Assembly (NCBI GenBank): GCA_044892505.1
Contig: CM097882.1
Span: 247,752,001-247,816,000 of the forward strand
Length of the DNA: 64,000 nt
Source of the DNA: Schmidtea nova
Lineage: Eukaryota
Direction of reading: 5' to 3'
The notes beneath the pieces were generated by a model. It saw only the letters and a program-made list of their open reading frames with translations, ran no database searches and was not told the origin of the DNA. The translations under genes were made by a program, and so were the position numbers. The stretch's first letter is position 1. Every line of letters starts with the position of its first letter. Shown here in pieces: positions 17,313 to 64,000 of the stretch.

Positions 17313-17331
17313 AATTTCTTAAGAAGGGGGA

Positions 17332-36737: not shown

Positions 36738-38106
36738 CAATGTTCCCTCTAAGCCATAAGTAGCAGTGCGCGCAAAGTCAGCTGCGCTGAGCAGCCTTTA
36801 AATACAAGTGAGCAGTAAAAATGGTATAACGTGTTTGTAAGAGTTTTAAAACGACACTACAAGTATAACACTGTTATTATGCACTTTATTATTACACTGA
36901 AGAGTTTTAAATATTTAAAATGAACTACATAATAATTATGTGTATTGAAAATTCGTAATGTTTTATAATTAAGATGTTAATTGGAAGGTGAAAATAAAAT
37001 ATAAAAATAGTATATTCTCAGCACATTTAGAAAAATGAAGATGGAAGGACGTCTAACTTGTGTCTTCTGATTTTTCCATCTTTCCAAAATTTATACACTG
37101 AATCGAGATCGACATTTTGACCGCCTATGAGATAAAATTTAATCCTCATCAGCATATCTAGGTGCACCACCTCCAGTCTGTTTCGCAATTTAGTTTTAAT
37201 GTTGTTCATCAAACTGAATCCACGTTCTGCGTCTGCACTAGATGCTTGAAACGTACCACAAATATCATTGTTGCAAATTTTTCTTCCGATAGTACATAAG
37301 TAATAACGTCTGCAAAAGTTTTTAGTGTTCCTGTTTTCAATTTCTCGATCAAAACAAATTTAAATTCAGCATATTCTGCTCTGATAACTTCCTTAAATTC
37401 TTTCTTCTCAATGTTATCATCGTTGGTTGATAGAAAATATTCATACTTTTCGGCCAATTTTAGCACATCATCATTTCCAAATTCAAATGTATTGTGTGCT
37501 TTTATTGTTTGGGTATCAAATGCCATCAATTCTTTTAGTTCTCCTTCCGGAAATCTATCTTGCAAATGATTACAAACTCGTTCAATAAATGGCAGTATCG
37601 TCGAATTATCGACATCTTTATATCCTTCTTTTGAAAGTAAATCGCCGACCTCCTTGCTCCAGCTTATTCCCCCTTCTAAATATTGCGATTTCAATTTGTT
37701 TTGCGATTTCAATCTTTGCTTTGGCAAACTGAACAGCTTCAATTGTTGTAATGCAGCTCCTCTGAAAAACACAAAACAGCTCCGCAAGTTCAGCTAGAAC
37801 GTCGTTTAAAATGAGAATTGCAACATGAACTTGATGGTCTCTCAGCTTCTTAAGGACGAATTTAGATACCGGATCGTTATCAGCATCCACATGTTTTGTG
37901 AAATATTCTATTGCGGCAGAATAATTACGAACCAAAGCTTTCACCGCAAAATGCCGCGACAACCATCAAACCTCATTAAGCGGCCTAAACGAGACACAAT
38001 CGTGGTCGGCCACATTAGATAATTCTCGAAATTCGGATTTCTTCACACTTGATCGACTAAACAATGTATATATTGTTCGAAGCAATAATTCAATGTCCAT
38101 CATCAA
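36738..38106 (-). mobile_element. hAT element (ZNF862-like transposase, frameshifted), 3' part; interrupted by the giant LTR element
   Basis: TIR-like CAATGTTCCCTCTAAG at 36738. Transposase pieces include MMDIELLLRTIYTLFSRSS and the dimerisation-domain end MNNIKTKLRNRL. Confidence 0.8.
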
Positions 38107-39509
38107 TGCTGGTGTGTTGGTTAGATTGACAACTGAGATCCTTATGATTTTATACGTTAGGGTGATCTCGCCAACATAAAAACATTCCCCCGCTGACACC
38201 CATGATGTATCCCTAACTACTCATCATGTTGGTACTGTGTCAACGTTGTGAAATGACAAGGCAGGTGAGCAACCTTTCGGCTACTATTCCCTTGTTTATT
38301 CACGGGTCCACCACTACCGATAGAAGGTGTCTGTGGCTTTCTTTCGGTCCCACTTATGCTCTTTACTTTTCTCTAGGGTTGATTCAATGTTATTACATCT
38401 GCGGCTTTAAATGAATCCGAGTTTTAGTTATATTCCATTCTCAGTCATTCCACAAACAAACAAGACAAGTCAAATCATTCATTTTATACATTTATTTGTA
38501 GTTCAACAATACAGAGGGTCGGATTACATTTAGTAGTTCTTGCTCGGATAGACCACGATGTTACGCTTTACCTATCTCGATTCTCATCGACTTTTGATGT
38601 ACCAGCACTCCTTGAAGGTACACCCCCTCGTCAAGATACCTCATGTATATATCTTCCCTTGCGAAATGAGCTTCACCTTGATTTGATTTATGACCATTAA
38701 CTGTCACTCGATACCCTATCATCCTGATGTATAGCGTTTATACTAGACCGCCTCTACTTTGATTTAGTTCATGATCATTAGGTCTTACTCGATACCCTAT
38801 GTGCAGTTAACTCCTTCCGCTTTCCAAATATTTAATACACTTATGGTCCCGCCGCATCAGCACCTCACAACCGAAAGATTGTGTTGCGCTGAGAGGCCCC
38901 AAGAATCCGTCAGGCTGTTAGGCCTCCGGAAAACCTTATGGATTTTAATATGATTAACAATTATAATTATGAGGGTTTAAAAGACTAAAACAACATGAAT
39001 TACCTTTTATTCCTTTTCCAAATTCGTTTCACAATGTTCTCGGTAGTCACAAACAGTTCACACTTGGTAAAGATAACATTGTCAAATACTGATTTGACTT
39101 CAGTATTTATACTGAACCGGTGTTGTTGGTTAGCCAATCAGCATCGAGTATGTGTGTATGTCTGCTTCATTTTTTATGTTGTCGGCTTTTTGCTGCCTAA
39201 CTTAACTCGCCGATTTGTTTGGTTAATCATGCGGTAAGTTTTTCTTAGTCATCAATTTATTTTATTTTATTTTTGTTTTAGGTCTTTGGTGACATCCGCC
39301 CACGCGCTGTCATATTCCAATTTTTCTGCTTCGCATGAGTGAGTTTTGAAGATTTTTGTTGTTTGATTTATATTTTATTTCTTTTAGATGTTGCCGCCTA
39401 TTTTGTTACGCTTTGGTGTTGGTAATTTATTTTGTTGTTATTCTGTATTTAATTTATTTTATTGATTGTATATTATTTTCAGATGCTGCTCGATTTGGCT
39501 GGCCCAACA
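38107..39509 (-). repeat. 3' LTR (1403 bp)
   Basis: Direct repeat of 62402-63804; three short ORF translations inside the two copies are identical. Confidence 0.97.
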
Positions 39510-39530
39510 TCACTCGGGGTCCCCTAAAAT
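39510..39530 (-). promoter_or_regulatory. Candidate polypurine tract region (minus strand TTTTAGGGGACCCCGAGTGA)
   Basis: Position directly before the 3' LTR; only partly purine-rich. Confidence 0.4.
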
Positions 39531-39684: not shown

Positions 39685-39906
39685 TCAATGTTTCTGGCTC
39701 ATAGGGGTTGATTTTCCGGTCCTTTCACTGGTTGACTGCATTTCGTATCGGGCTTGAATTTGTCGTAGATGACTTCTCATCCTTTGTTGGGTTTTTGCTT
39801 CTCTTTTGGCGCATCTACACATTATCATTTGCTGTTGTTTGAGGCTTCTGATTCGATATAGGGTATATGTAATCACGATGATCAAGATGATTGTTAATAT
39901 CGTCAT
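39685..39906 (-). CDS. Small 73-aa N-terminal TM protein (accessory ORF)
   Basis: MTILTIILIIVITYTLY followed by a basic tail; co-oriented in the cassette. Confidence 0.55.
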   Translation of the reverse strand: MTILTIILIIVITYTLYRIRSLKQQQMIMCRCAKREAKTQQRMRSHLRQIQARYEMQSTSERTGKSTPMSQKH

Positions 39907-39987: not shown

Positions 39988-40239
39988 TTAGAATGTTTTA
40001 TGGATTTCTCGGATCTTCTCGATTTGATCGAATAGGGTTTGTAAGGGTTTGCGATGATCATGACTGATTCGCATTTGTCGGGTTAATTGTTTCAAGTCTT
40101 CTCTGACTTCATTTAGTTGTTTTTCGATCTCCTGGAATATTTCGTTTGACAGGGTTCTTTGAATTTCTGTTGTCGAACAGTTCGTGATTGCTGCTGTTAA
40201 CATAATAGTTAGGATTGGTAGGGTTTTGAGCCAGTTCAT
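39988..40239 (-). CDS. Small putative secreted coiled-coil protein (accessory ORF)
   Basis: Likely ATG at MNWLKTLPILTIMLTAAITNC (signal-peptide-like), then a heptad-rich helix. Confidence 0.55.
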   Translation of the reverse strand: MNWLKTLPILTIMLTAAITNCSTTEIQRTLSNEIFQEIEKQLNEVREDLKQLTRQMRISHDHRKPLQTLFDQIEKIREIHKTF

Positions 40240-40313: not shown

Positions 40314-41474
40314 TTACACATCCGTCTCCTCTGGTTCATGAAACCCTTCATCTTGGAGCTCCATTGGTGGTGGTGGTATAAATGGTAACCACACCACTCT
40401 GCTTCTCCACATTGCAATTTCATCTTGGTACGTTCGAGAGATTTGTATCTCTTCATCTAACAGATACTCCATGTAATCTGATTGTTCGCTCAGAGTTTCA
40501 ATTTGTCTTTCCATCTCTTCCACTTTTCTCTTCAGGGCTTCTGTTTCTGTGGGTTCGGTTTCTATTTCTGGGGTTTCTTTCTCTGCTTTCAGGGTTATTA
40601 TCTGCTGTTTCAGTTCTTCGTTTTCTTTAGTCAAATTCGCTATATTTTCCTCATACGCTTGGTTTGATTCCGCATGTCTTTCCTTCACAGCTTTCAGTTC
40701 CATTTTCTTTTGAGTTACTACTCCTTGGTAGCCATTTACATCTCTTTCCAGGCTTTCTTTTTCCTTGATCATCTTTTGTCTTTCCGCTTCCTCTTTCTGT
40801 CTGATACCTCGCATTTCTCCATTTACCATCTGTATTTGCCATTGCGTTTTCTTTAGTTCCTTTGCTTGTTCTCGAATAAATCGCTGTCGTTTTCGACTCC
40901 ATTCTTTGTTTGCTTGTTCTTGTCGCTTTCTCTGTTCCAATTCCTCTTTCAGTTCGTCTATCTCTTGATACAATTTCCAATCTTCGCTGTGTGCTGTCCT
41001 TCTGATTATCTCTTTGGCTTCTTTATATACTCGTTTCGACTCCATCTTCCAATGTCTCGCTTGAGCCTTGATTGCTAGTATTTTTACCTCCATCTTTTCC
41101 TCTTGTTTCTCCCTCTCTTCTCTTCGCGTTTTCATCATATTTTTATAATGTTCTGCTTGTTTCCTCATCAACTGATAGGTCTCTTCTATCTTCTGTCGAC
41201 TTCGTGAATTCGTTCCTTTTAGCTTCTCTATTTGTGCTGTCAGTTGTACTATCTCTTTATTCACTTCCTCGAGTTCTAGTTGATATAACTCCATTCGTCT
41301 CTCGTATTTTAGTTTCTCGTAGAAATTGTTTGTCATCACTTCGTGTAATTCTCTGGTTCTTTGTTCCACTTCCGTTTTACATCTACTTTCGATTTCTCTT
41401 TCTATTGCTTCTCGTTCGTTCGCCATCTCGTTTCTCGTTTCATCTTCGATTACATGTTCATTTGCGTTTTCCAT
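40314..41474 (-). CDS. 386-aa long coiled-coil protein (accessory ORF)
   Basis: E/K/R/Q-rich heptads over ~340 aa; C-terminal WLPFIPPPP motif. Confidence 0.8.
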   Translation of the reverse strand: MENANEHVIEDETRNEMANEREAIEREIESRCKTEVEQRTRELHEVMTNNFYEKLKYERRMELYQLELEEVNKEIVQLTAQIEKLKGTNSRSRQKIEETYQLMRKQAEHYKNMMKTRREEREKQEEKMEVKILAIKAQARHWKMESKRVYKEAKEIIRRTAHSEDWKLYQEIDELKEELEQRKRQEQANKEWSRKRQRFIREQAKELKKTQWQIQMVNGEMRGIRQKEEAERQKMIKEKESLERDVNGYQGVVTQKKMELKAVKERHAESNQAYEENIANLTKENEELKQQIITLKAEKETPEIETEPTETEALKRKVEEMERQIETLSEQSDYMEYLLDEEIQISRTYQDEIAMWRSRVVWLPFIPPPPMELQDEGFHEPEETDV

Positions 41475-41564: not shown

Positions 41565-42977
41565 CTACTCCAACCATCCTTTCGTTGACTTCGTGTTCAT
41601 CACTGTTGTACTTGCTTTCTTCTCGATCTCCAACTCTACATATAAGTTGTCGTTGTACAACATCTCCCACATTGTTTGGTGTGGTATGAATTTTGGTTCT
41701 CCAGTCGCTAATGAACATTCTGTGGTTGGTCTTTTGTAAGCTTCGTGCTTACCATCAATTTTGAATACTCTCGCTATTGTTTCTTTCGAGTTTCTCACTC
41801 TCATTATAGCCTTTGTTTCTAGTGGCCATTCTAATATGTCGTCGTAACCACCTTTACACAACGCAAAGAATAATGACACATGCGTTTCCTTTCCTGATCC
41901 ATCTCCATTTGGATAAATTCTCATTCGAACTTTGTATCCATTTTTCCACAGATAGAATGGTGGACTTGTTACCGACACCTGACTTCCTGCTTTTGCTGCT
42001 GCGAACTTTTCGTTGAAATTCTTAATTTTCCATATATATGGTGCAACAGGTAAACTCTCGATATCCTCTGCATCTCGCACCCACATTTGATGTCGCACGT
42101 TTACTTCTTTTACCAATGTCTCCATGACTTTGATTTTCTCCATCATTTTCTCTCTGGTGAGCTCGAATTGTTCTCTCGTTTCCAGCAATAACTCCGTCAT
42201 TATCCTCTGAGATTCGATTTCTTTTCCCAGCTTCTGTATGGTTTGCTCCATTTCTTCCAAATTTTCTATTAGCATCTCTGCGTGTTGTACCGTTTCGGTT
42301 TCCAAATGCTCTTTCATCTCTTTGCTTGTTTTCTTTACTGCACATCCTTGTTTACTCCATACGCACTTTCTTGGTCTTGATTCGCACTGTTCCCAATGTT
42401 CTCTCACCATCACTTCTTCTCCGGTTCCGCAATTACTTGGACAAATTCCTCGGAATTTTCCGCACACTTTCTCTTCTGCTACGTTGAGATGTTCTGTTTC
42501 GATTACTTCTCTCGTCTCTCTTTGTTCGCAGTATTGACACTCTATTATCTCTGCTTTGCACTCATCCTTGTGATTTCTCGACTGCTTGATGGTTATCGTC
42601 TGTTGACACTTTTCACATGTTGCTTTCTTGTTTTCGCATTTCTCCAGATGTTGTCTGAGTTCGATTATTTGACCTTTCCACTCACATGGTTGGTTTATAC
42701 ATTCTGTTTTTATCTTCCAGATCTCCTTTTGGATTGCTTTGTCTGGTTTCGTCTCGTTGATTAGTAGTTTATCGCCACACTCTGGACACTTTCTTGTCTC
42801 ACTTTCACTGATTATTTGCAATATACACTTGGTGCACATCCTGCATCCACATTCCGTTTGTCTCGGTTTTAACAGTAAATTTTTACACTTTACACACGTC
42901 ACATTTACTCCCCATTGTCGATTCTCTCCTCTTAGAATCTCGATTGTTTGGTAGTCTGCTTCGCTTTCTGTTCTCAT
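41565..42977 (-). CDS. TRAF-family protein (RING, TRAF zinc fingers, coiled coil, MATH)
   Basis: RING CVKC...CGCRMCTKC...CPEC; zinc finger CINQPCEWKG...HLEKC; MATH YIWKIKNF, SPPFY, GYKVRMRIYPNGDG, HVSLFFALCKGGYDDILEWP. Confidence 0.93.
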   Translation of the reverse strand: MRTESEADYQTIEILRGENRQWGVNVTCVKCKNLLLKPRQTECGCRMCTKCILQIISESETRKCPECGDKLLINETKPDKAIQKEIWKIKTECINQPCEWKGQIIELRQHLEKCENKKATCEKCQQTITIKQSRNHKDECKAEIIECQYCEQRETREVIETEHLNVAEEKVCGKFRGICPSNCGTGEEVMVREHWEQCESRPRKCVWSKQGCAVKKTSKEMKEHLETETVQHAEMLIENLEEMEQTIQKLGKEIESQRIMTELLLETREQFELTREKMMEKIKVMETLVKEVNVRHQMWVRDAEDIESLPVAPYIWKIKNFNEKFAAAKAGSQVSVTSPPFYLWKNGYKVRMRIYPNGDGSGKETHVSLFFALCKGGYDDILEWPLETKAIMRVRNSKETIARVFKIDGKHEAYKRPTTECSLATGEPKFIPHQTMWEMLYNDNLYVELEIEKKASTTVMNTKSTKGWLE

Positions 42978-43068
42978 TCTACAACAATATTTACATCAAT
43001 TTCCCCATATTTTTGATTTTTTCTGGTTCTTTATTTACACGTATTTACACAATTTTTCCGCTTATTCA

Positions 43069-43419
43069 TTATACATCCTCAGTTGAATCTGGCTCTGGAT
43101 ACACGTCTATCTCATTTACAATCCAGCTCGTCCAACTATCCGGTATCTCTTCCTCTTCATGTCTCGTTAATCGGTCAATCTCCTCTGCTTGCCAGTTGTT
43201 CACTTCATTCAATGTTCGATTCTCGTTCTGTAATTCGTTTATCTGTATTTGTTGGATCTCAATTTTGTTCATTGCTTCGAAATTACAGTTGTAACTCTCG
43301 GTTAATAATTGCGTTTTGGCCGTCAACTGGCTCTGTAATTCATTTACTGTTCTGGCTAGCAGGTCGCATTGTACTTTCCATCTCGTCATCATTGACATCT
43401 CGATATTTTCTTGGTTCAT
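43069..43419 (-). CDS. 116-aa coiled-coil protein with acidic tail (accessory ORF)
   Basis: Open frame, co-oriented, heptad pattern. Confidence 0.6.
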   Translation of the reverse strand: MNQENIEMSMMTRWKVQCDLLARTVNELQSQLTAKTQLLTESYNCNFEAMNKIEIQQIQINELQNENRTLNEVNNWQAEEIDRLTRHEEEEIPDSWTSWIVNEIDVYPEPDSTEDV

Positions 43420-43544: not shown

Positions 43545-46500
43545 CTATACAACTATCACTGGTTTTCCTTCGTACAGTTCCTCGTCCTCGATCTGTACCC
43601 ACATTTCTTCGTGTTTTGATCGTCTTTTCAGCTCTTCTCGTACTTCTTTTGGTAGTTTTATGTTGTAATTCGTGACCTTTACGTCCGGCCATTTTACTGC
43701 TATGGTCTTATTTCTCATGCCATATCTCCAACATACTATCATGATCGTTATCAGTGGGATACACGCTATGAATACTCCCATGCTGATTAAACCCATTATT
43801 GTTTTCCCGATGTTCATTCTTGGAGTTTCACTTTGGTTTATCATCACGCCATATTGACCTTTCCATTCCGCTTCCCATTGTTCATATTGTTGTTGTCTCC
43901 GTCTGACTTCTTCAATCACTTTCTCTGGTTCCCATCTTTCTTGGCGGTTTGGTATTGTTTCTTCCTTCTCGTTTTGTTCTCTCTTCTGACTCAATTCTCG
44001 GAATTCTAACTTTCTGATTCTCCTCTTTATCGGCGTGTAATAGGTTTCGCACCTTTCTTGTGGATTTCCTTGTGTATCCACTTCTTCAATTGCACACACT
44101 TCGTATTCTGCGTTTGTTTTCAACTTCCTCATTTCTACCTCAATAATTTCTCCTTTGTCATCTGCGGTCTTTTGACATCTTCGTGGAGACTTTCCCATAC
44201 TGTTTGGCATTAATGTCCAACAGATTTCTAGGACCTTTTTATGGATCTTCCATATTATCAACGTTGTTGATTCCGATTCGTGTTCTATTGTCGTGCTTTC
44301 TGTGGTTGCCTGTTGAGTTCCTTGACTGTTTGTTGTCGTGGTTCTTTTTGACTTTCTTTTCCTCTGTCGACTTCCTCCCATTTCAATCGTTCTTGTTCCG
44401 TTAATTTGCTCTGGCGTCTTGTACAGTTTGCACTCCAGGCTTCTTAGTATTATTTCTCTTATTCTTCGAATTACGCAAATTTCGTAGGTTTGTCCGACTT
44501 CGAATCCATTTAGTTGAAACGGGATTCCTCGTTCTCTCGTTCTACATTGCGGTATTATGTTGTTGGTCGATACTCCGATGTATTTTCTCCAACACATCCC
44601 AATTGTTCTCCGACCAATGTTTTTTATCTCCACGGTTACTACTTCATTCGCAATCGTTTCTTGATCTTGTTTCTTTCTTTTTGGGAACTCAATTATCTCC
44701 TTTGCTTGGAACACTTTACACTCGCTTGTTCCTGGTCTGTTTCCGTTTGCTGCTTTTCCCATGAGACATAGTTCACATTTTCTATCTGTCTCCATTTCGG
44801 TTATCTCAATTTCTTCATTTGTCTCTGCTTCTCGACTTTCTCTTGTTTCGCTGATTCCAATTACTTCATTGTTTCGTCCCCAACATCTTCCATTCGTTGT
44901 TCGTTGGTCTTGGATATTTACTAACGTCATCACGCTGATATCTATGTCCTCCATGATTCTCTTAATGAGAATTAATATTAATGCTACACATATCAATTCT
45001 GGTTGGAATGTTAATTTGCCCGCTGAATTTTTGGTTATTCTTTCTTTCTCTGTTCGGTTTCTGATTCCCTCTTCTGCTTCCGTTTGATTCTTCCCTTTCT
45101 CTGGTTCTACTTCTGTTCTTCTCGTTGTCTCTTCGCTTCTTTTCTCAATCCATTTCTGTATTTTCAGCGCTTCTGTTGCTTTATATAATTGACATGCAGT
45201 TACTTGAGGTGCTTTTGGTTCTCCTCTCTGCTTTATTGCGCATATTATGTATGACTTTTCTTTCTCCAACCCTTTGATTTGGATGACGTCTCGCTTCAAA
45301 TCTGACAATATACACTTCAGCGTATCGTTTTTCTTCAGATTTTCTTTCCAGCATATTCTTTCGTATACTTCATTTCCTCTGATTATTTCCAGCGTGACGT
45401 ATTGTTTCTTGGCTTCTCCTTGTCCGATGATTGTTATCAATATCGCTATACACAACATTTCTGGTCTCAAAAGTAGACTTCCTGTTCGTTTTCCATGGTT
45501 CGCACATTCGTCTTTTGTTCCACTGTTTTCTCGTTCTTCTGCTTCTCTTTTCTTGTCGTTTCTCGTTGGCTTTGGTTCTTCTTGTCTTTCTTTTTCATCA
45601 TCTTCCGTTCTTTTGTTGTCATTGTCTTCTTTGTTCTTTTCGTTGTTACTTTTGTCGTCGAAATCTCTGTAACCACCCCCTGGTCCTTTGAAAATGTCGT
45701 CCTCGACATTAATTTCTTTAATCAATCTTTCATACGCTTGAACCGCGAGTGTGCTAGACTCGAATTCTCGTATTTCCATCTCTTTGGATGGTTCTATGTT
45801 TTCTAGTCTACTTTGCTTGATTGTTTCTTTGGCTTTTGCCCATTCATTCACATATTTTCTGAACAAGTCTTTCCATCTTCCCATTCGTTCCTGTTCCTTT
45901 GGGTTGTTCGTAAGTTTCAAATCTCTTCTCTTCAAGAATTCTTCTACTATCTCTGGCTTTTTGTGTCTTAATAACGCGCTTCTGATACACCAATTCTGGT
46001 TCTGTTCCATATGATCATTGATCTTGAACGCTGGTTCCTTAGTGACCGGATTCACCCATGTTAGTAATGCTCTTGTTTTCTCTATGTCGTGTATCATTAC
46101 TGTTAGACTGAAATTCTTTACGTTATTTGCCAGATATTCGATGTCATCCTGTTTCTTGATGGACTTTATGAACTTGATCATCTCGAAGTTGTTCCACTGT
46201 ATTGCGATATCTATGATGGAATTGTTCTTTCCATTTTTCCCTTCGATTTTTGCTCCTGCTTCGTATAATTCATTTAGCACTTTCAACTTCGTCTTCTTTC
46301 TTGCTGCGATTATCATGATTGTATCTCCGTTATCGTCAACCGTATTCATGTCTGCTTCGCACTTGACCATTGCTTTCGTTATTTCTAGCACTTCGTTTTC
46401 TTTCTTTCGGCGTAATGCCCAGTGTATCGGCAATCTCCCATCCTTTGATAATAGGAATGCCACTGGCATTTGATTTTTGATCGTTTCTATGTCGATCTCG

Positions 46501-49500
46501 TTATAATCCCCTTGTGCATATCTGTGCACTCTCTCTGTAATTGCTCCTAGTATTTCCAACGAGTTTTTATTCTCTTTGAATTCCGATAATTTTTCCTGTG
46601 CTTTTGCTACGATTGCATCTAGTCTCTCTTGATATTCCGCTTTTGCATTGAACAACACTGCTTTGCTTCTTATTCGTGTTTGCATCTGTTTCATCCGTTG
46701 GTCTTGATACACTGCTTGTCTGAAGAACTGTCCATACTTCAATGTTTCCACTAACTCTTTATATCGCTTGCTTATTTCTTTGTGCTGCTTTTGGATGTCA
46801 TAGAAATGTTCAAAGCTCATATCCGGATTCCATTGTTTATCACACCATTTCTTGATTAATCCGAATAATTCTTTCTTTCTGTCTTCCAGCTTGTATTCTC
46901 TTGGGTTCTCGCTAACCCGTAGCGTATCTCTCGCTATCAACACTGCAAGTGTTTTTGGATCGTATGTTACCTCTACTAGATGTTTCAGTAACGCATTTTC
47001 TCCCCTTATGAACACTTCATTACAATCGACGACCCATGAATCTCTTTCTGGTCGTTTCCACTTTAACAGTATTCTCCAGGTTTTACTGTTTTTTACCCTG
47101 ATTGCTTGTTTCATGATCGATCCTCTAGTTAGTTCATCGATTTCCCACGTGGCATTTTCCGTAATATACTTTAGTATTCGGTGATTCGCTCTATCGATTG
47201 CATGATTCAAGAACGTTCGTCCCTCTTTATCTTTTGTCATCCAATTCGATCTGGTGTTTCCGAATAGCTTGACTATTTCATCGTTTCTTCCATGAATTGT
47301 CATCATCATAAGTGGAGTAATTCCTTCCCAATTCACTTTGTCAATTTCTCCTCCACCTTCGAGTATCATCTCCACAATCTCTTTCACTTTTTCGTTTCCA
47401 CCGTGCTTGATTGCATTGTGCAACGCGGTGTTGCCGTCTTTATCTTGTAGATTCAATGTTTGAGGGATTACCTCTAGCAGCGTTCTTGTTATTGGATGTG
47501 CTGTTCTATCCTTCGCATACTCCATTACATTCTTTCGAACCTCCGTCAGTATATTGAAATCGAGCCACCATTTCCATTCTGGTATAATTTCTCTGGTTTT
47601 CTTTGCCAGTTCTTTGATATCTATTGCTTCTCTTCGATTGTCTTCTAGACTTGTTTGCGGCTTTTGTTGTACTCGCAACATATTGATTCTCGCCGTCTGT
47701 GATCTTGTCATCACCCGTTTTTCCGGTAATAGAGTTGCTGTCTTTGGTACTTTTCTGCATCGACATGCATTCACGTATATTGGTCTTACCAATGGATTGT
47801 TCACCAATCGTACTCGCACATTATTTTCGTTTACTGTTGTTATTTCGTATGGCCCTTTGCCTGGTCGTTGGAGTTTCTTGACTGTACCGGGTATTATCTC
47901 TGGTGTCTCGATTATCACCCAATCTCCAACTTTTAAATCAGGTGCTTTCACATTCTTTTTCTGATCATGTAGATCCTTGTAACTCTCTTGATAGAACTTG
48001 ATGTTTAGTTCCGCCGTTTTCCAGATTTCTTGCATTCTTTCTTTGAACTTTGTAACGTAATCGTCAACCTCCATGTACTGTGATAATGGTGGTTGGTATT
48101 CTAAATCGATCGGTAAGTTGCAATCTCTTCCGTACATTAGTTGGAATGGACTTAGCTTTGTTGCCGCATGTATTGACATTCTATATGCCATTAAACACAA
48201 GTTGATATACTCGTCCCAGTCAGTCTGATGTTTGCTGACGTAATTCGACAACATGCGTATCAATGTTCCATTGAACCTTTCTGTTTGTCCGTTCGTTTGT
48301 GGATGGTATGGGGATGTTCGTAATTTCGCAATTCGGAAGTAGTTCGTAACTTCGTCTAATATTTCACTCATGAAATTTGTTCCTTGATCCGTTAGGATTT
48401 TCTTTGGTGTTCCGTATCTGCAGCATATCTCTTCCACCAATATTCTTGCGACTGTTTTCGCTTTTTGATCTGGTATTGCGAACGCTTCTGGGAACTTTGT
48501 TAGATAGTCCGTGACTACTAATATATACTGATTTCCCTTTAAACTTTCCGGTAATGGTCCAACTACATCCATTGCTATCGTCGCCATAGGTTCTGCAGGT
48601 ATTGGCATTGGTTTCAGGGGTGTTTTCCACTTTGTTCCGACGTTCTTTCTTGTCGCACAGGTCAAGCAGTTCTTTATCCATTCTTTCACATCATCTTCCA
48701 TGGTTGGCCAAAAATACTTTTGTCTCAGTCTTCCGCTTGTCTTTTTTGCAGACATATGTCCGCCTAATTTTCCGTCATGATATTGAGTCATGATTTCTTT
48801 TCGTCTATTCGCAGGTAAGCACATTAATCTTCGTTCTCCATCTTGTATCAATAACCATCCTTTTTCCATCACATATCTATGTTGATATTTCTGCATATGT
48901 TCGCGCAACGTTTGGTTCTTGCCGAATATTTCTGTTTCCCTTTCTTTCAAATACTTGCTGATCATTCCCAACTCCTCGTCTTCGAGTTGATCTTTCCTTA
49001 GTTCGTTGAAATCCAAATCTTCCGCTATTAATGCACATATTTTCAGGGCGTTTAGGTTCACCAATTCTGGGAATGTAAATCTTGACATACAATCCGCATT
49101 TGCATTTGCTTTTCCTGCTTTAAACTTTATGAATGGCGAGTATTCTTGCAACTGCATTGCCCAACGCATCAATCTACTTGATGATTCTTTATGTTGACCT
49201 AACCATACTAGCGGTTGATGATCCGTCGTGATATATATTTCATGACCCCACAATAGGTACTTGAAATGCTTGATTGCCAATATTATCGCATAGGCTTCTC
49301 TTTCCGTGACTGAGTAATTCTTTTCATGCTTCCTGAACGTTCGACTGTAATATCCAATTACTCTTTCCTTGCCTTCTTCGTCAAATTGGCCTAGTACTGC
49401 TCCTGCTGCATATCCACTTGCGTCTGTTGCCAACAGAAATGGCTTCTTAAAGTCTGGATGGACCAATATTGGTGCTGTAATCAGCTTATCTCGTAATGTT

Positions 49501-52500
49501 TCAAATGCTGCTTGTTGCTCTTCTCCCCACACAAACGACACGTCTTGTCTTACCAATTCTTGCATTGGCTTTGATATTCCTGCATAATCCTTGATAAACT
49601 TTCGATAATATCCACACAATCCCAAAAATTCTTGTATTTGAGTCACTGTCTTTGGTGGTGGACATTCTTTGACTTTTTCGATATTCCTTGGATCTGGTTC
49701 TTTTCCTTTTGCTGATACAATGTGACCTAAGAATGTCACTTTTTCTTTTGCCCAATCGCACTTTGACGGCTTTAATTTCAGTTTCCACTGTCTCAATTTC
49801 ACGAACACATTTCTGATGTCTTGCAAGTGACCTTCGAATGTTGCGGAGTAGATCAATAGATCGTCGATATACACCATGCATTGTTTTATGCCATGTGTTA
49901 CGAAATTCATGCATCTCTGGAATGATGCTGGCGCGTTTGTTAACCCAAACGGCATTTTCTTGAATTGGTACAGATCTCGTCCGATTGTAAATGCTGTCTT
50001 CTCTTTATCCTCGTCTTTCATTTTGATCTGCCAATATCCGCTTTTTAAATCTAATGACGTGAAATAAGCTGCTCCTTGTAACGTCAATAACATTTCGTTT
50101 ATGTCTGGCAGTGGGTACGTATCTCTTTTCGTAACGGCATTTAATCGTCTGTAATCGATACAGAATCTTTGAGTTCCATCCTTCTTTTTCACCATCACCA
50201 CCGGGAATTGCCAGGGTGAGCAACTAGGTTCGATGACCTCTGCATCTAACATCTTTTGTACCTCTTCTTCTGCCACTGCTTTTTGAGCTTCTGCCAGTTT
50301 ATATGGTCGTAATGCGATTGGCGTTTCGTCCGTCAACGGTATCGTGTGTAATGTTACGTCACATGTTCCTAAATCCAGATCTGATGCTGCGAATATATCT
50401 TTATATTCCATCAACAGTTTCTGTAACTGTTCTTTTTGTCGTTCGTCTAACAACACACTGTCGATTTTCCATGGTAATTCGTCTTTGCTTTTCTCGTTCT
50501 TGTCGGGTATTTCGATTTCGGACATGGGTGTCAATTTACCCAATCTCTCATTCTCGTATATTATCTTGTCCTCTTCGTCGAAGTTCACCAGATTTATCGG
50601 TATTTCTCCTTCTTGGTTTATCGTGACCAATTCTCTTGCCATTGGTAATTCTTTCTTTGCTTCGAACTTCTTACTCGGTTCGAATATCATATCTCCCTTT
50701 ATTGTTGAATCGATCTTGACATAGCACATCATTTCGTGCCTCGCTGGCACTACTATTTGTTCCGCACTTGCCACTTTAACTTTCATTCTGCAGATTTTTC
50801 CTGTTCTATCTTTTAGCTTCATTGCTCCTAGATCAATTACGATTTCCTTGAACAGGTCTGGCATCAGGTCAGTTCCAATAATACATGGTACACTCAGCGA
50901 TGGTATTACAGCGATGTACGTGTTGATCTCTGCACCTCGATGCTTAATTTTTACAAACCATCTTCCGGCTACTTCTACTGTCTCTTGACTGCACGCGATT
51001 ACATGTACGTTCGTCTTCTCGATTTCTCCTTGATTTTTCTCTGGTATATAATTAATGTCGATTGCCGAAATATTCGCGCCTGTATCGATCATTGCTTCGA
51101 TTTCTCTTCCATTTATTTCTACGGTTGTTGTTAAAATCGGTCCCATATTTGTGGACATAACCGCTATCGTGTGCGTGTCTTCTAACGAGTTTACACTTCC
51201 ACCTCGTTTTACTTTGCATCCTTCTGGAATTATCGGGTATATACTTGTCATCGGCATCATCTGCATCATATTTGGCTTCGCTTTGTATATCGGTTCGTTA
51301 TACATTGACTGAGGTGGAGCGCTGTATCTCCAATTCTCAACTGCACTCTTTTCGTTATACTGTGGAATCTGGTTTATATTCGCTTGTCCTCCTTGATCGT
51401 CATCGTCATCATCATCATTGCTTGAATCATCTTGTGTTCGATATCCTCTCACTCTTTCCCATAATCCTTTCCTTTCTTTCTTTAATTGTCTTCTTGCTTG
51501 TTCGTCTTGCATTATCTTTTTGAATTTCCTTCCAACATCTTCATTTGTTCCTCTCATTTTTGCAAGTATCTTCAACAACCTCTTTATTCGATGTATGTCT
51601 TTTGAGTGTCCGTGTAACACCATCGTTTTCGCAAGGAATGGTAAAAATCCTACTACCATTTTCCAATTCACTTTCTTTTCTCTCTTGTAGATGTCGAAAC
51701 ACGCTAACATTTGCGTTATTATCACTCTGACGATTTGTATTATCAGTATAACTCCCAGTATTCCAGCCATCATTTGTCCAAATATCAGGAATCTTCCCCA
51801 CATTGCCTTCATCATATTTTCTGTGGCTTTCTTGAAATGTGCCGGTGACAACAGCAGTTCGTAATTCGGTCCTTCTCGATAATTCGTTCCTCCCGTTATT
51901 GTTACGATATTTGACAGTAGTGCTTCTCTTCTTGCCGGGAATAATATATTCTGCCTTGCTGCTTCTAAATCTTTTGGACTATAGATTCCGTTGTTTGAGA
52001 CATCTACGTCGCTGAACTGTCTATCTTTTGACAACTGCATTAGCTCAAATTCTCTTGGTGCTAATACTTCGGTTCTTCCTGGGAACATAACCCATTTGCC
52101 ATCTGGCTTCTGATAAAGCGGTCCGTACGCATTACTACAGTTGAACGGATTTGGTTCAAAACTTGGTGGATTGATGATTCTCGTCACCGGTTGAACATAT
52201 CGTACTTTTCCTTTATAATCGATTTCTAGTTCGTTTGTACATTGTCCAGGTTTCAACTGCGTTGTTGCTGCTAGCGATGCGTGTGTCTTTTCGCAAATGT
52301 ATACATACATTGCCTCTCCAACCACTCTTCCGAAATGTCCTTCTCTCAGTGGTAATAATGGCATCGCGCTATCTGGATTCGTAATCGCTACGGCCAACTT
52401 TGTCTTTAATATTTCCCGATTCAGTATACAATCGTTGTTTATTAGATCATAGTACACTTTTTGCAATGAGGCTTGTCCTCTATGGAATAAGAAATCCATT

Positions 52501-55500
52501 TTATTATTCACATACAAGTGTAGCTTGATATCCATTGTGTCGATCTTGGGTTTCGCATTCGGTACTTCTTGCTTTGACACATATATTCCTGGATAGTTTG
52601 TTTCGTATACTGTTGTACTGCACTTAAGGGTTGCTTTCCCTTTTATGAATCTCATGCCCACATCCTGATTTGTGGTTATCAACACTGTTGGTGTGGTTCT
52701 CATCTCTATCCGTTTTTCTCTATGATCGGGTTTCAATTGTCTTTTATTCTCTAAAGCTTCTTTGAGATGTTTTGCTCTAGCTTTGTCGTCATCGTCTTCT
52801 TCTTGGAACGTTTTGCCTTGAATTTCGTCAAACTTTGCTCCTTGTAGCAGTTGTAATTGACATTCGTTCACTTTTGGTTTATACACCAAAGTTGACATTC
52901 CCGTTTGACACATGCTTCTGTCAATTTTACACATGGATAACGTTTTCATTTCTCCTGTTGTTGGTTCGAAGAATGCTTCGTAGCTTTTCAGTTCGACTAT
53001 ATACGTATCCATTACCACTAAGTTGGTTGCAGGTACTCCAAATATTGGGTAGGTTTCTCCTTGACAATATCCTTCTCCTCCCGTAATTCGTCCTGCTACG
53101 TAATATGTCTGCTGTAACATCATTCCTGGCTTTCCTCTTATCTTGATTTTATCTCTCGTTGTCACTTCTCCATGTTTAAACAATGCTTCGCAGTCTTCTC
53201 CCTGTAACACGATTGGTTCTCTTTCTGTTCCTGGCATGACAATTGCTGAGTAATGTCCTCTACCGCAATAGAATGCGAATCTCGTCTTCTGTACCTTGCA
53301 TTCATTCACCATTGTCTTTATTAGTTCTGCCTCTTGATATACGTGGTACCATTGTTCCTTTTTTATCTCTTTTAACTCTACGGGAGTTGCATCTTTGCAC
53401 TGCTCCGTACCTCTCAATGAGTACTTCTCTCCCAACTTCATTTGATCACAGTCAAATACTTCAAATGTTGTTACACCTTCTGTGCTTAACAACCAAACTA
53501 GCATCATCATGATTATCGAGTTTAGATTCAACGTCGATCTTCCGTTTCCTTGCATCGTTTGTCTATTCTCCATTTCTCTCAATACTCCTTCGAGTTTCTT
53601 TCTCATCACGTTAGAACCTTCTTTTGTCTGGTTCTCTTTTATGAACTTTTCCCATCCTCCTTTTCTGAGGATATATGGTTCAATTTCCTTCTCGATAATC
53701 ATCGCCGTATTTTTAATATGTCTTCCCATCGGACTTGACTTCGGACTTCCTCGGCTTAGCGTTAGCAAATTGTATATCGTATACGAGATTGCTACTAGAT
53801 ATTTGCTATCCGTCTCTGCTCCGTTAAGTAGCCTTTTTATCAACATCGTGGTTCCTTGCCAATCTAGATGATTCGATTTTGTTTTTGCCTTTATCAATTC
53901 TGGCATAATCGGTGCTATTGCATTGTGTAGCATTCTTGCCTTTGTACTGGGTTCGTTTATCCGCCACAAATTCTTTAATTCTGGGTCAATTATCGCTAAC
54001 ACATCCATTATCGTTTTGGTGAGCCATTCTTCTCCTTGACAAACTTGATTCTCCTCTTTTCCTCTGATCTCTGCGATTTTATCCAATTTCTTCAAGCAAA
54101 TCTCCCATTGCTCTTGTCTCCTTTCTTCCCTTGTCTTTGGGATTGCTGTTGCTGGATCTATCTTTGGTCTTCCTCTTGGTCGTTTTTCCATTCCAGTTCC
54201 TGTTTCTACAAATCTCGATGTTCTTCCGGTTTCTTCCGTAACATCTCTTCCTTCGTTTGCTCGTTGTTCTAACCATCTTTCCATTTCTTGAGTAAACTGT
54301 GGTTGTTCTTGCTCGTCTTCCGAATCGCTTACCATTTCTATGACTACCTCCTGTTCCACTCCTTGATCGTCGATTTCTGCTGGTGACGTTATTGGCATCT
54401 CTATTATTCTGTCGAAAATATTCGCCGTTGGTTTTTGAGTCAACTTCGTTAGTTCTTCTATCGCCTCATCACTATCTGTTAGTATCTCATCCACGTCATA
54501 CGCTTCTGGTGGTGTTCTCTCTCTCGTTTTTATTGGTGTTGTCCTTGCTTGTCCCGAACTTGTTCCTGGGGTCATTGTTGACTTCATCGGACTTGGTGTA
54601 CTCATGCTCCCTTTCGTTTTCTTTTCCTCTTTAAACTTCAGTGGTTGACCCACTATCTGTGCCACTGTTAGCGTATTCATTAGATCCAATTGCACTGGTG
54701 TCAGCCAGATTTCCAAATTATTATCCAACGATCGTCCTTGATGTTGCAGGTGGAATGGTAGTTCGTACATCAGTTTCTCTTTAACACTCTTCACTTTTTC
54801 TGTTAGCATCACCCAAAACTCTTCTTTTCTCTGATTCGGATACATTATCCTCAAATGTATTTTCTGTGGCGTTTCCTCCGCAAACTCTTTGTTTCTCCAC
54901 TTTTTTATTACATCGTCTAGTTGCTCTGGACACCACTCGTTAACTCTCTTGTATTCTGCTATCGCTTTAGCTACTTTTCTCAAGTTTGTCATGTCTTCTC
55001 CATTTGAGATTATGAATTGTGCTAAGCCTTTTATTGTTTGTCTTTTTCCCCGAGTATTCCCTCTCAACAGTTCGATCAATTCACTCGTTTTCTGTTTCTC
55101 CAATTCTGCCCATATTACTGCAGTTTCTGGTCCGTCTAAGTCCGTTGGTAATAACTTCCTTGTTACCATACATATCCGTTTCGTATTCCGTTCATATCTG
55201 TCTTCTCCTTCCGGATCTTCTTCATACACGCCTCTTTTCACTTTCCAACATTTCTCTTTGTTATCCCATTGTTTCTCTACTGGCGTCAATCGTCGTCTGT
55301 TAAGATCCACTTCTCCTAATATTGTCTCCCATTCTGGCTTCATCTGCCAGTTCCGATAGATTTCTACTATTTGTCTCAACTTACGCATAACGTCCTCTTG
55401 TCGTTTCTTTCTCCTTTCTTCATCCCTTGGTGTTGCTCTTTGCACATCATCCATTCTGATGACATGTATTGTCTGATAATTATCCCATATGCCGATTTTG

Positions 55501-58412: not shown

Positions 58413-59279
58413 CCCGATTCCACTATCTTGGAATACTGTACTAGTTTTCTTTGCTTCTAGTTCACCACTTGTTTCTGGATTCGACTCTTCTTCTTCACTA
58501 CTCTCTGTTTCGTTATCTCTTGATTCGCTTCTTGTTCTGTTTTCCCTGACTAGTTCACTGTCTATCGTCTCTACTTCGTTTCGTACTTCTAGATCTTCTG
58601 GGGTTTCTTCTTGGTTCTCTTTATTACTCGAATTATCGCTGATCTCTACTTGTTTGTTCTTTTGTTGCTTAGGCTTGTTACCTGTTCTTGTCCTTTTTGC
58701 TGCTTTTCTTTCTGCTTCCGTTAAGATTGGTATTATACCTGATCTTGTTTCTCGTCCCTCAATTTTGTCTATTCCTCAACTTCTTATATTCTCAATTGAT
58801 TTTCTACTCCGCTTTTGCTTTGCTTCTTCTATGCTTTGTTTCCTTTGATTGCTCTGACTGCTAGATTGCTTTGAATTGCTTGATTGATTTGTTTCCTTAA
58901 AACAAATAATCACTTACACGATACGTCCCCGTTATCGTGTTTCTCGTCCCTCTCACGGGTGTAGTCATAATTCATGAAGATCCCCATTTTTCCCATTTCC
59001 CTTGATTTTAAGTCTATTTAAATTATCTATGCAGTCGCATCAATTATCTATTCTTTATCAAATACACCAATTACTTTTCCCCAGTTTCCCAATTACTTTG
59101 TCGCTCAGCGCTCTTATTATCCCCTTTACTTTTCTCAGGCTTCTCTGGCTCTGAGTTCAAATTTCCCCTTATCTGTCGACTACTCTGTTTCTCGACTACT
59201 CACTTTATCTCCTATTCACACTACGTTTACTACTTCATTTCAATTCTCATCTCTACTCACCTTTAATTCAACTGACATT

Positions 59280-59760: not shown

Positions 59761-60072
59761 ACTTACTCACTTTACTTTACTACTCCTCTTTGTATGCATA
59801 CTTTAACATCATTAGGCCACATAATCAGCTTTACTCGCATTTATCAATACCCAGGTGCGCACCTTCAACTCTCACATTATTACCTCGGTTTCTTTCAACC
59901 CTTATTCCTCATTATTCGCTATTCATTTTCACTATTCATCATTTATCCTCATTATCATTTATTCATCGCTTATTAATCTTCATTATCCGGATAGTTTTAT
60001 ACTTTATTTAGTCCTCATCTGCCTCACTTCGTCGTCTTTCTCGTGGGCTTTTACTCAATATTTTATTTCGAA

Positions 60073-60623
60073 CGAGAACTATGCTCACTGCTGAGAACTA
60101 TGCTCACTAACGAGAACTATGCTCAATGACGAGAACTATGCTCAATGACGAGAACTATGCTCACTGACGAGAACTATGCTCACTGACGAGAACTATGCTC
60201 ACTGACGAGAACTATGCTCAATGACGAGAACTATGCTCACTAACGAGAACTATGCTCACTGACGAGAACTATGCTCAATGACGAGAACTATGCTCACTAA
60301 CGAGAACTATGCTCACTGGCAAAACATGGTTGTTATGAGGGTTTTGCTTACTGATGGAAACTCTTTGCCCTGGGGACTATGTTCCCCGATGAGAACTACG
60401 CTCACTGATGGTGACTACAGGAATTATGTTTCCTGATGAGAACTACGCTCACTACGATGGCTATGTTTATTGATGAGAACTACGCTCACTGATGAGGACT
60501 ATGTTCGCTGGTCTTGTGTTTATTAATGAGAACTCTGCTCACTACGAGAACTATGCTCACTACGAGAACTATGCTCACTATGATGTTGTGTTTTTATGAC
60601 GAGACCTATGCTCACTAGGATGT

Positions 60624-61388: not shown

Positions 61389-61847
61389 TTACAAGTACAC
61401 TGTTATTTTCTCGGATACGGGAAGGTTGCACATAGGACATCGTTCATTTATTTTACACTCATTACAGAATCGAAAATGCCCACACGGCAACAACATTATC
61501 TGTATTTTGTTTATTTCACAGATATAACACGTCAGATATTGTCTCGTATGTTCTGTTGTTATTCTTATCCACTCATCGTGTTTTGTTGTTAACTGTTGTT
61601 CTAGCCTGTGGCACTCGATATTCATTTCGGGGTTGTTTAATCTTTCTCTGTACCATTTATATCTCGTTGCTGTATCCACTGTGTTCCTATTCTCGCTTAT
61701 GCTCATTATCATTTCGGCTCTCTCTGTGTTGTTTGTCGGTTCGTGGTATCCTTCTACCTCGAGTCGTCTTAACTTCCTCATTATTGTCTCCACTGTTTCG
61801 TTGTTTGTTTCGAAAAACGTTTGCATTTCTTTTATTTTGTTCTCCAT
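61389..61847 (-). CDS. 152-aa protein with C-terminal IAP-type C3HC4 RING finger (putative E3 ligase), upstream of gag
   Basis: CYICEINKIQIMLLPCGHFRFCNECKINERCPMCNLPVSEKITVYL matches the XIAP/cIAP-type RING spacing and terminal hydrophobic tail. Confidence 0.85.
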   Translation of the reverse strand: MENKIKEMQTFFETNNETVETIMRKLRRLEVEGYHEPTNNTERAEMIMSISENRNTVDTATRYKWYRERLNNPEMNIECHRLEQQLTTKHDEWIRITTEHTRQYLTCYICEINKIQIMLLPCGHFRFCNECKINERCPMCNLPVSEKITVYL

Positions 61848-62377: not shown

Positions 62378-62395
62378 ATCCCGGCTGAGCCCCCA
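62378..62395 (-). promoter_or_regulatory. Primer binding site, tRNA-Pro type
   Basis: Minus strand TGGGGGCTCAGCCGGGAT, 16/18 to the MuLV tRNA-Pro PBS TGGGGGCTCGTCCGGGAT, 6 nt from the LTR end. Confidence 0.85.
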
Positions 62396-62401: not shown

Positions 62402-63804
62402 TGCTGGTGTGTTGGTTAGATTGACAACTGAGATCCTTATGATTTTATACGTTAGGGTGATCTCGCCAACATAAAAACATTCCCCCGCTGACACCCATGA
62501 TGTATCCCTAACTACTCATCATGTTGGTACTGTGTCAACGTTGTGAAATGACAAGGCAGGTGAGCAACCTTTCGGCTACTATTCCCTTGTTTATTCACGG
62601 GTCCACCACTACCGATAGAAGGTGTCTGTGGCTTTCTTTCGGTCCCACTTATGCTCTTTACTTTTCTCTAGGGTTGATTCAATGTTATTACATCTGCGGC
62701 TTTAAATGAATCCGAGTTTTAGTTATATTCCATTCTCAGTCATTCCACAAACAAACAAGACAAGTCAAATCATTCATTTTATACATTTATTTGTAGTTCA
62801 ACAATACAGAGGGTCGGATTACATTTAGTAGTTCTTGCTCGGATAGACCACGATGTTACGCTTTACCTATCTCGATTCTCATCGACTTTTGATGTACCAG
62901 CACTCCTTGAAGGTACACCCCCTCGTCAAGATACCTCATGTATATATCTTCCCTTGCGAAATGAGCTTCACCTTGATTTGATTTATGACCATTAACTGTC
63001 ACTCGATACCCTATCATCCTGATGTATAGCGTTTATACTAGACCGCCTCTACTTTGATTTAGTTCATGATCATTAGGTCTTACTCGATACCCTATGTGCA
63101 GTTAACTCCTTCCGCTTTCCAAATATTTAATACACTTATGGTCCCGCCGCATCAGCACCTCACAACCGAAAGATTGTGTTGCGCTGAGAGGCCCCAAGAA
63201 TCCGTCAGGCTGTTAGGCCTCCGGAAAACCTTATGGATTTTAATATGATTAACAATTATAATTATGAGGGTTTAAAAGACTAAAACAACATGAATTACCT
63301 TTTATTCCTTTTCCAAATTCGTTTCACAATGTTCTCGGTAGTCACAAACAGTTCACACTTGGTAAAGATAACATTGTCAAATACTGATTTGACTTCAGTA
63401 TTTATACTGAACCGGTGTTGTTGGTTAGCCAATCAGCATCGAGTATGTGTGTATGTCTGCTTCATTTTTTATGTTGTCGGCTTTTTGCTGCCTAACTTAA
63501 CTCGCCGATTTGTTTGGTTAATCATGCGGTAAGTTTTTCTTAGTCATCAATTTATTTTATTTTATTTTTGTTTTAGGTCTTTGGTGACATCCGCCCACGC
63601 GCTGTCATATTCCAATTTTTCTGCTTCGCATGAGTGAGTTTTGAAGATTTTTGTTGTTTGATTTATATTTTATTTCTTTTAGATGTTGCCGCCTATTTTG
63701 TTACGCTTTGGTGTTGGTAATTTATTTTGTTGTTATTCTGTATTTAATTTATTTTATTGATTGTATATTATTTTCAGATGCTGCTCGATTTGGCTGGCCC
63801 AACA
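62402..63804 (-). repeat. 5' LTR (1403 bp)
   Basis: Direct repeat of 38107-39509; TG...CA termini. Confidence 0.97.
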
Positions 63805-64000
63805 TCAATATCATATTTTTCCATGCATCGTCTATTCCCAAGTCTTCTCGATGTGCAACGCAGTGCTGCTCGGACAAATGAGGGACCTCGGCACGAAGCA
63901 AAGCAGCTACTCCATTTCGCTTGCCAAGCATCACTGACGCTCCATCCGAAGTGAACATGACCATCTTCTGCAAATCAAGATTGTTTTCAATGTAGAACTG
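63805..64000 (-). pseudogene. 5' continuation of the interrupted hAT transposase
   Basis: FTSDGASVMLG...QHCVAHREDLGIDDAWKNMIL joins MMDIELLLRT (~38100) once the LTR element and one TSD copy are removed. Confidence 0.85.

Follow-up and report, generated by a model that had tools for sequence, protein, structure and literature searches.

The window analysed here is a stretch of 64,000 nucleotides of Schmidtea nova DNA (GenBank assembly GCA_044892505.1, contig CM097882.1, positions 247,752,001 to 247,816,000, forward strand). It contains a Burro-type gypsy retrotransposon of 25.7 kb at 38107-63804, which carries a gene for a TRAF protein; we refer to the copies of this element as family B and describe two related families, A and C, below. 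On the minus strand, the genes are arranged in the order RING152, tandem-repeat leader, polyprotein, orf116, TRAF, CC386, orf83 and orf73, so that TRAF is one of five ORFs (116, 470, 386, 83 and 73 aa) between the polyprotein and the 3' LTR (Table 1). The polyprotein comprises Gag with CCHC knuckles, a Monjiviricetes-type fusion glycoprotein, protease, RT, RNase H, integrase and ankyrin repeats, and a Pfam search of it found no MATH or BIR domain. The two LTRs are identical across 1,403 bp and are flanked on both sides by TCAA; we thus conclude that the insertion is recent. Target-site duplications of 4 bp were also observed at three other family B copies and at one family C copy. The primer-binding site TGGGGGCTCAGCCGGGAT (62378..62395) is presumably tRNA-Pro-like, and no tRNA gene was found in the window. 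LTR length in family B ranges from about 1.4 to more than 3 kb (38107-39509 compared to L081-L140); the middle part varies, and the window copy is among the shortest. An upstream RING ORF is present in all three families. When CC386 and orf116 were compared to the protein-cluster atlas, only unnamed or weak clusters were matched. The C-termini TDV of CC386, EDV of orf116 (window 40314-40330 and 43069-43090) and TFV of the family C protein CC515 are taken by us to resemble PDZ-binding ends.

Table 1. Features of the TRAF-carrying element and its flanks in window coordinates.
Feature	Position	Strand	Basis or remark
Target-site duplication TCAA (left)	38103..38106	.	Sequence
3' LTR, 1,403 bp, TGTTGGG...CAGCA	38107..39509	-	LTR pair comparison
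Purine-rich stretch adjoining the 3' LTR, weak PPT candidate	39510..39525	-	Sequence
orf73, hydrophobic N-terminal stretch	39685..39906	-	Shared pN/pS 0.06
orf83, signal peptide possible (by eye)	39988..40239	-	Shared pN/pS 0.19
CC386, coiled-coil-like, no known family	40314..41474	-	Shared pN/pS 0.13; 29% homologue 3' of TRAF in family C
TRAF accessory gene, 470 aa	41565..42977	-	RING, zinc fingers, coiled coil, MATH; purifying selection
T-rich YAG, 1 nt upstream of the TRAF start codon; predicted acceptor for cis- or trans-splicing	42979..42995	-	Sequence
orf116, small ORF, no known family	43069..43419	-	Shared pN/pS 0.05; 37% homologue directly before TRAF in family C
Polyprotein, 5,076-codon open frame, first ATG 58412	43545..58775	-	Gag to ankyrins; Pfam
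19-bp tandem repeat array in the 5' leader	60034..60617	.	Sequence
RING152, upstream accessory ORF, 152 aa, C-terminal C3HC4 RING	61389..61847	-	PF13920 E 5e-9; shared pN/pS 0.22
Primer-binding site TGGGGGCTCAGCCGGGAT	62378..62395	-	Sequence
5' LTR, identical to the 3' LTR	62402..63804	-	LTR pair comparison
Target-site duplication TCAA (right)	63805..63808	.	Sequence

The remainder of the window contains several other features. A small frameshifted gypsy element lies on the plus strand at 13029-17569 between 214-bp repeats of 93% identity, with gag at 13161-14288 and RT/RH/IN fragments up to 16703. Nested inverted repeats at 18210-23206, with 626-bp arms that are 99% complementary and with 152-bp and 130-bp subrepeats, resemble a foldback or TIR DNA transposon. 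An open frame of 644 aa without any Pfam match is found at 28517-30451 (minus strand), and an exon at 35277-35729 (plus strand) is similar by eye to the C-terminal end of a subunit of the translation initiation factor eIF-2B. At the Burro insertion site, there is a fragment similar by eye to a hAT-type transposase (37209-37793, minus strand).

The TRAF ORF starts with an ATG at 42977 and its stop codon ends at 41565 on the minus strand, with no stops or frameshifts over 470 aa; the plus strand of this stretch was read too and is closed. The domains follow each other in the order of the TRAF family, with a C3-C-C4 RING (aa 28-67), about five TRAF zinc fingers (93-232), a coiled coil (229-308) and a C-terminal MATH domain (314-451). 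MATH is the sole Pfam match that passes the curated cut-off (E 2.5e-27), whereas the RING (TRAF3_RING, E 2e-4) and a zf-TRAF at aa 170-224 (E 4.5e-5) fall under it. The AlphaFold model has an unbroken helix at 229-308 and a beta-sandwich (mean pLDDT 92.2, pTM 0.51, from an alignment of 82 sequences), where the low pTM is expected because the chain is elongated. In a Foldseek search with this model, TRAF1/2/3/5 domains rank first (best E 1.7e-17). Pfam, AlphaFold, Foldseek and the coordinates thus agree with the original prediction of a complete and undisrupted TRAF protein of 470 aa between pol and the 3' LTR. Among known structures, TRAF6 gives the best score for the N-terminal 160 aa, whereas TRAF5 and TRAF3 do so for the MATH domain, and therefore the element TRAF is not an orthologue of any single vertebrate TRAF.

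Two parts of the protein deviate from the textbook sequence. The RING is not a canonical C3HC4 RING, having Cys instead of His at aa 45, but eight potential ligands remain. This change (CGC) is common to the element TRAF, to all seven full-length host TRAFs tested in genome G000 and to Dendrocoelum TRAF-2/4/5; the His is kept in 85 of 109 database proteins with the RING motif. In the MATH groove, SSF of TRAF3/5 is changed to EAY and ASGC to ATGE, with the R/Y/D motif retained, and the partners of the element TRAF may therefore differ from those of TRAF3/5.

In a review, MATH_TRAF_C, BIR and BCL2-like motifs are reported for the planarian elements Burro1/GYPSM1 and Burro-2/3/4, with MATH located in the polyprotein of S. 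mediterranea Burro1 and in an upstream accessory ORF in D. tigrina (Dugesia tigrina) (PMC6431247). MATH_TRAF_C in Burro/GYPSM1, which the original prediction did not mention, was thus already in print. When comparing the window element to the published description, we find a giant element with a polyprotein of the expected size of about 5,000 aa (5,076 codons) and the gypsy order PR-RT-RH-IN, Gag CCHC knuckles with an in-frame Env between Gag and protease (Retrotrans_gag E 4e-6, zf-CCHC, Monjiviricetes_fusion E 1.5e-71) and ankyrins after the integrase (Ank_2 E 3e-19). MATH_TRAF_C is found as well, here in an accessory ORF and in family A in the polyprotein. No BIR was detected in any ORF of the window element, although it is present in family C, and we therefore regard the window element as Burro-type and not as Burro1 as described. 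Of the BCL2-, Ubi/SUMO- and dUTPase-like motifs, which the review detected with HHpred (PMC6431247), the BCL2 and dUTPase segments gave no Pfam or PDB match here, and for the ubiquitin-like segment UBX scored no better than E 0.11. Overall, the match of the window element to Burro is one to the published description.

TRAF belongs to family B, with about one TRAF per RT: exact 23-mer probes gave 110 matches for TRAF and 103 for RT in genome G000, where both counts are lower bounds. A BLAST-type search of the same genome yielded 646 loose TRAF candidates, of which the best 40 are all full-length, namely the window copy and 39 further copies at 95-97%; an open frame is present in 29 of the 30 copies retrieved from these best 40. 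We furthermore sampled 20 copies in even steps through the first 100 TRAF matches listed, skipping two copies that had already been retrieved. All 20 lie inside elements. TRAF is full-length in 18 of the 20 and open in 17 of these 18, the polyprotein is intact in 5 of 20, and the paired LTR stretches, where both are visible, have 99.4-100% identity. Two rearranged copies were observed. One is a deletion derivative in which MATH is joined in frame to the polyprotein (L126-L128, C2:167.47-167.50 Mb); in the other, TRAF aa 1-443 are fused to the tail of CC386 and RING152 and part of gag are lost (L068-L070, C1:277.92 Mb).

Selection on TRAF was estimated from 19 sequences by comparing variants to the commonest codon in each column, where variants found in at least two copies were counted as shared. 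Among the shared variants, 119 are synonymous and 46 non-synonymous, which results in a pN/pS of 0.11 (p 1e-36), compared to 1.54 for the same DNA read one base off frame. A second set of the 30 top copies again gave 0.11. By part, pN/pS is 0.03 for the RING, 0.17 for the zinc fingers, 0.12 for the coiled coil and 0.09 for MATH. Elsewhere in family B, it is 0.00-0.02 for RT, IN and env and 0.10 for the ankyrins; the constraint on TRAF is weaker than that on RT, IN and env. Among 27 distinct copy proteins, 27 of the 28 Cys/His positions in aa 1-235 are invariant, including all eight RING ligands, as are R353, Y355 and D359 of MATH. The features expected of a retrocopy or passenger, that is, few copies, neutral decay and a close host parent, were not observed. 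The gene is thus neither confined to this copy nor decaying neutrally, as the 110 probe matches, the location of all sampled copies in elements and the pN/pS show. The intactness of TRAF (17/18, 94%) is close to the 88% expected from the decay of the polyprotein (5/20 intact; hand calculation). As it is no higher than the decay rate predicts, we conclude that selection acts on the transposing lineages; in this comparison, we find no sign of selection after insertion and no sign of domestication.

The start codon of TRAF is part of a conserved AG-A-ATG, which was kept in 30 of 30 copies. A YAG occurs at most 9 nt upstream of the ATG in all six accessory ORFs of family B (background 0.27 of sense ATGs, p 4e-4) and of the first ATG in seven of the eight accessory ORFs of family C (background 0.21, p 1e-4), the window of 0-9 nt having been chosen after the sequences were seen. 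Counting 8/8 in family C needs a post-hoc start at M19, which is the first ATG in 2/10 sampled copies, and hence 7/8 is used. No YAG precedes the first ATG of the polyprotein. The position of the accessory ORFs right behind acceptor-like motifs suggests spliced mRNAs, and we consider it probable that the accessory genes are expressed in this way. Each accessory ORF would be reached by splicing to the YAG before its ATG, either in cis from a donor in the LTR or leader, as in complex retroviruses, or by spliced-leader trans-splicing, which flatworms use. Four contig sets of unlabelled kind cover all 30 bins over 38107-58100; the predicted acceptors are not among the joints listed (15 of 48), which, given the unlabelled kind of the sets, speaks neither for nor against splicing. 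As a separate observation, TGTAAA(T/A) words cluster in the spacers of the accessory ORFs (window 43529-40293), where 10 of the 21 occurrences in the element are located, and AATAAA is found in the spacers before TRAF and CC386; these are possibly operon-like signals for 3' ends and acceptors.

Two further element families were detected that carry MATH-coding genes. Family A was revealed by a search of G000 with the Pfam MATH profile, in which the best 150 of 2,419 loose candidates were scored. It is about 29 kb long with LTRs of 3,966 bp and 221 probe matches, and its MATH lies at aa 1239-1383 of a polyprotein of 4,706 codons, an insert that the window polyprotein does not have; no BIR was found in the family A polyprotein. 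One example (G000:C1:97568804-97597985, L061-L064) is Burro1-like, with MATH in the polyprotein and without the TRAF/IAP cassette. The in-frame MATH fusion in the deletion derivative L126 shows a route to such an arrangement.

Family C was revealed by searching G000 with P0007, the best single-stretch database match, and has 1,116 probe matches. The one copy with both ends seen measures 24.7 kb (G000:C1:304523206-304547876, L153-L156); its two LTRs of 4,296 bp are identical to each other and, like its leader, of family A type. In general, where the LTR ends and leaders of families A and C are aligned, most blocks share 81-93% DNA identity. Family C would make up about 2% of the genome, provided that the majority of its copies are full length. 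It encodes RING160, a 1,036-aa polyprotein remnant (protease and ankyrin), orf211, TRAF, IAP, CC515, orf191 and orf274. The TRAF is 36% identical to that of the window, and the IAP is a 389-aa BIR-RING protein with cIAP1 as best structure match (3t6p, E 5e-13), for which a word-index protein search returned no match. Since orf211 is a homologue of orf116 and CC515 of CC386, the gene order is conserved between families B and C. The sequence of an orf116-like gene, TRAF and a CC-like gene, together with IAP, is found in all four long family C stretches and in 10 of 10 copies sampled in even steps through the first 100 matches listed, all on C1. Within the 20 kb examined around these 10 copies, there is no RT, IN or Env, and Gag remnants occur in one. 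The cargo of family C, namely TRAF, IAP and four orphan ORFs, is under purifying selection, with a shared pN/pS of 0.20 for TRAF and 0.18 for IAP, compared to 0.65 for part of the polyprotein remnant. As far as our literature searches show, a second, RT-less family with a full TRAF beside a BIR-RING IAP is new; the third family has MATH in the polyprotein. The RT-less family shows that cargo genes can be under selection in a non-autonomous element.

To place the element genes among the TRAFs of the host, we inferred two trees. In the full-length tree of 33 rows, which does not include P0034, P0058 and P0001 because these predictions are truncated or frameshifted, the window TRAF groups with the family C TRAF and P0007 (96/91) within a planarian clade (95/97) and apart from the host cluster. 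In the MATH tree of 60 rows, which predates the discovery of family C and lacks its rows, the window TRAF groups with the family A polyprotein MATH and with P0007, P0038 and P0001 (97/96), the latter three being proteins without DNA context. In the MATH tree, the element clade is separate from both the C2 cluster (100/99) and the single-exon genes (99/96) of the host, and in neither tree does a host row fall inside the element clade. AU tests on a 16-row quick tree reject two placements of the window TRAF, one beside L035 (2e-7) and one in the clade of host single-exon genes (1.8e-4). A caveat on the full-length tree is that branches in the element clade are long and its composition is skewed, and the position of this clade as nested in or sister to the host planarian TRAFs has a support of 2. 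The homology of the B and C genes is supported independently of the tree by synteny. The best host match to the element TRAF has 32% identity, and the base composition of the gene is that of the element (A 0.41), not that of host TRAFs (0.32-0.38). Protein searches with a word index returned only distant TRAFs (24-31%, and 22-34% in another), and a search of 50% clusters gave no single-stretch match above 39%.

The element TRAFs thus form one supported clade apart from the host cluster, which points to a single ancient capture rather than to an element-driven expansion in the host; we infer that it took place early in the planarian TRAF radiation. That the TRAF was captured from the host and kept by selection, as originally predicted, we regard as very probable in view of the pN/pS of 0.11 and the position of the gene within the planarian TRAF clade. 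The lack of introns, which had been noted, is real but proves little, since the closest host TRAFs in G000 are likewise single open frames (392-486 aa). The host TRAF/MATH genes are concentrated at C2:404-455 Mb (L031-L060, L170 and L171), where many form tandem arrays and have their coding sequence divided between two frames; L171 is a single ORF with two MATH domains. Of the best 150 MATH matches, 73 were classed as lying outside elements, and 63 of these 73 are located in that region (hand count).

It had also been proposed that the elements spread TRAF copies in the host. Such an origin of the planarian TRAF expansion, or of the host single-exon TRAFs as domesticated element copies, would fit with the single exons of the host full-length genes, with an element clade that may be sister to the host clades and not nested in them, and with short Burro LTR pieces within about 1.2 kb of the host TRAFs L034, L035, L036 and L037. 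Such scraps are, however, expected by chance when over 1,400 elements are present, and cassette neighbours are missing from all host TRAF loci checked. The concentration of the non-element matches in one C2 region with its separate clade, the absence of host rows from the element clade and the AU rejections argue against it too, and recent events of this kind are disfavoured. For the host genes examined, we thus find no support for a spread by elements and consider this scenario very improbable; the host TRAF expansion is, judging from these sequences, a separate clustered event. TRAF spread in another sense did occur, as most MATH-coding copies in the genome are borne by elements: there are at least 1,447 such places (110 + 1,116 + 221 probe matches) compared to 2,419 loose MATH candidates. 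Counts of an 'expanded TRAF family' made on genomes or transcriptomes (PMC6109357) may therefore mix host and element genes.

Lastly, we consider what the element TRAF might do. With moderate confidence, we read it as a fixed, selected and once-captured accessory gene that would be expressed from a spliced mRNA and whose product would be a working adaptor and ubiquitin ligase that prevents a stress or death response of the transposing cell. The protein would trimerise via its coiled coil and MATH domain, join the TRAF complexes of the host or compete with them, and redirect ubiquitination in the TAK1-p38/JNK/TBK1 pathways by means of its RING, either alone or together with an IAP. The survival of the cell that transcribes the element may be prolonged by this, which is our proposal for why selection would act at the level of the element. 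In planarians, TRAF2/3/5 homologues are reported to respond to PAMPs and to be immune-response genes regulated by TBK1 (PMC7958881, PMC13563047), and Burro RNA is reported to be up in differentiated cells upon PIWI loss (PMC8532177). An active adaptor or E3 ligase is favoured because the RING is constrained and because family C has an IAP neighbour. For an active role against death or immune signalling as such, we see about an even chance, and the direction of the effect is uncertain since the one characterised viral TRAF that we found, ISKNV ORF111L, is pro-apoptotic.

The original prediction spoke of a decoy or modulator. As a pure decoy, the protein would bind receptor tails or host TRAFs with MATH and coiled coil and block signalling, and the RING would serve folding or heterodimerisation and not catalysis. 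N-terminally truncated TRAF2 is a dominant negative, and the MATH that family A keeps alone in its polyprotein resembles such a RING-less form; the L126 deletion, which fuses MATH in frame to the polyprotein, and the invariant R/Y/D residues of MATH are also in line with a decoy. Yet the RING of family B is more constrained than MATH (0.03 versus 0.09) and is the most constrained part of the protein, with its eight ligands invariant, and the whole N-terminal half has been kept in two families that are 36% identical. This suggests an active ligase or adaptor rather than a RING-less dominant negative, so that the decoy half of the prediction is weakened and a pure decoy seems unlikely to us. A role inside the element is less probable still: TRAF would then ubiquitinate or scaffold element proteins or a silencing factor, in assembly, budding or PIWI antagonism, with little effect on immune signalling. 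The elements do contain other ubiquitin-related parts, namely the upstream RING and a Ubi/SUMO-like motif described in the review (PMC6431247), the order of TRAF and its two orphan companion ORFs is fixed, and Burro elements are reported to be silenced by PIWI (PMC8532177). Against this role, the theme of the cargo is death and stress, with TRAF, a BIR-RING IAP and the BCL2-like motif reported for Burro (PMC6431247), and family A replicates without a full TRAF. Among these three, we favour a damping of death or immune signalling, at roughly even odds.

A more far-reaching reading, which is tentative and as a whole rather unlikely, joins the families together. Burro elements would be complex retrovirus-like agents with an ancient cassette, expressed by splicing, that rebuilds a TRAF-cIAP ubiquitin-ligase module, and family C would be a satellite of family A. 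The RT-less family C would provide the full TRAF and IAP in trans to its mobilising helper A, which together would form a two-component retroelement selected on host-signalling cargo, with more than 1,100 copies of C, far above A. If this were true, element TRAFs would be more numerous than those of the host and might influence innate immunity and cell survival in planarians when PIWI silencing lapses.

When comparing our findings to known systems, the closest is Burro/GYPSM1 itself, with which the window element shares a length of about 25-30 kb and a polyprotein of about 5,000 aa with Gag, an in-frame fusion-glycoprotein Env, PR-RT-RH-IN and ankyrins. However, the review describes a MATH domain and an accessory ORF located upstream, whereas here a complete RING-ZnF-CC-MATH TRAF lies in a downstream multi-gene cassette; a selection test, an RT-less TRAF+IAP family and acceptor motifs are likewise absent from the review (PMC6431247). 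Our literature searches turned up no paper that reports a full-length TRAF as cargo of an LTR element, but the published maps of Burro-2/3/4 may already show such an ORF. To our knowledge, whole host signalling genes under selection are rare in the LTR retrotransposons of animals. A role of Burro in apoptosis or ubiquitination was already proposed in the review, and with the present genes this guess becomes a testable claim on named genes (PMC6431247).

Outside of retroelements, ISKNV ORF111L of a fish iridovirus is a TRAF homologue that binds TRADD and promotes apoptosis (PMC3352826). Compared by description, it is similar in being a TRAF homologue of a genetic parasite that alters the death signalling of the host, but it belongs to a large dsDNA virus, is a single copy and is pro-apoptotic in the assay. 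Complex retroviruses have spliced 3' accessory genes, defective retroviruses transduce host genes, and LARD-type elements are non-autonomous. The accessory ORFs of the element resemble the first in that they follow acceptor-like motifs in the region 3' of pol. Family C resembles the latter two, as it lacks RT, IN and Env, has the LTR ends and leader of the autonomous family A and carries selected host-derived genes. In contrast to these systems, the RT is of gypsy/Metaviridae type, the host is an invertebrate, and splicing and helper dependence are predictions. The element TRAF itself has the domain order, the fold and the R/Y/D residues of MATH in common with the TRAF2/3/5 adaptors, and its IAP neighbour in family C, with cIAP1 as best match, recalls the TRAF2-cIAP pair; the element TRAF differs from these adaptors in the Cys for His of its RING, which is a planarian trait, and in the altered serine stretch and SGC motif.
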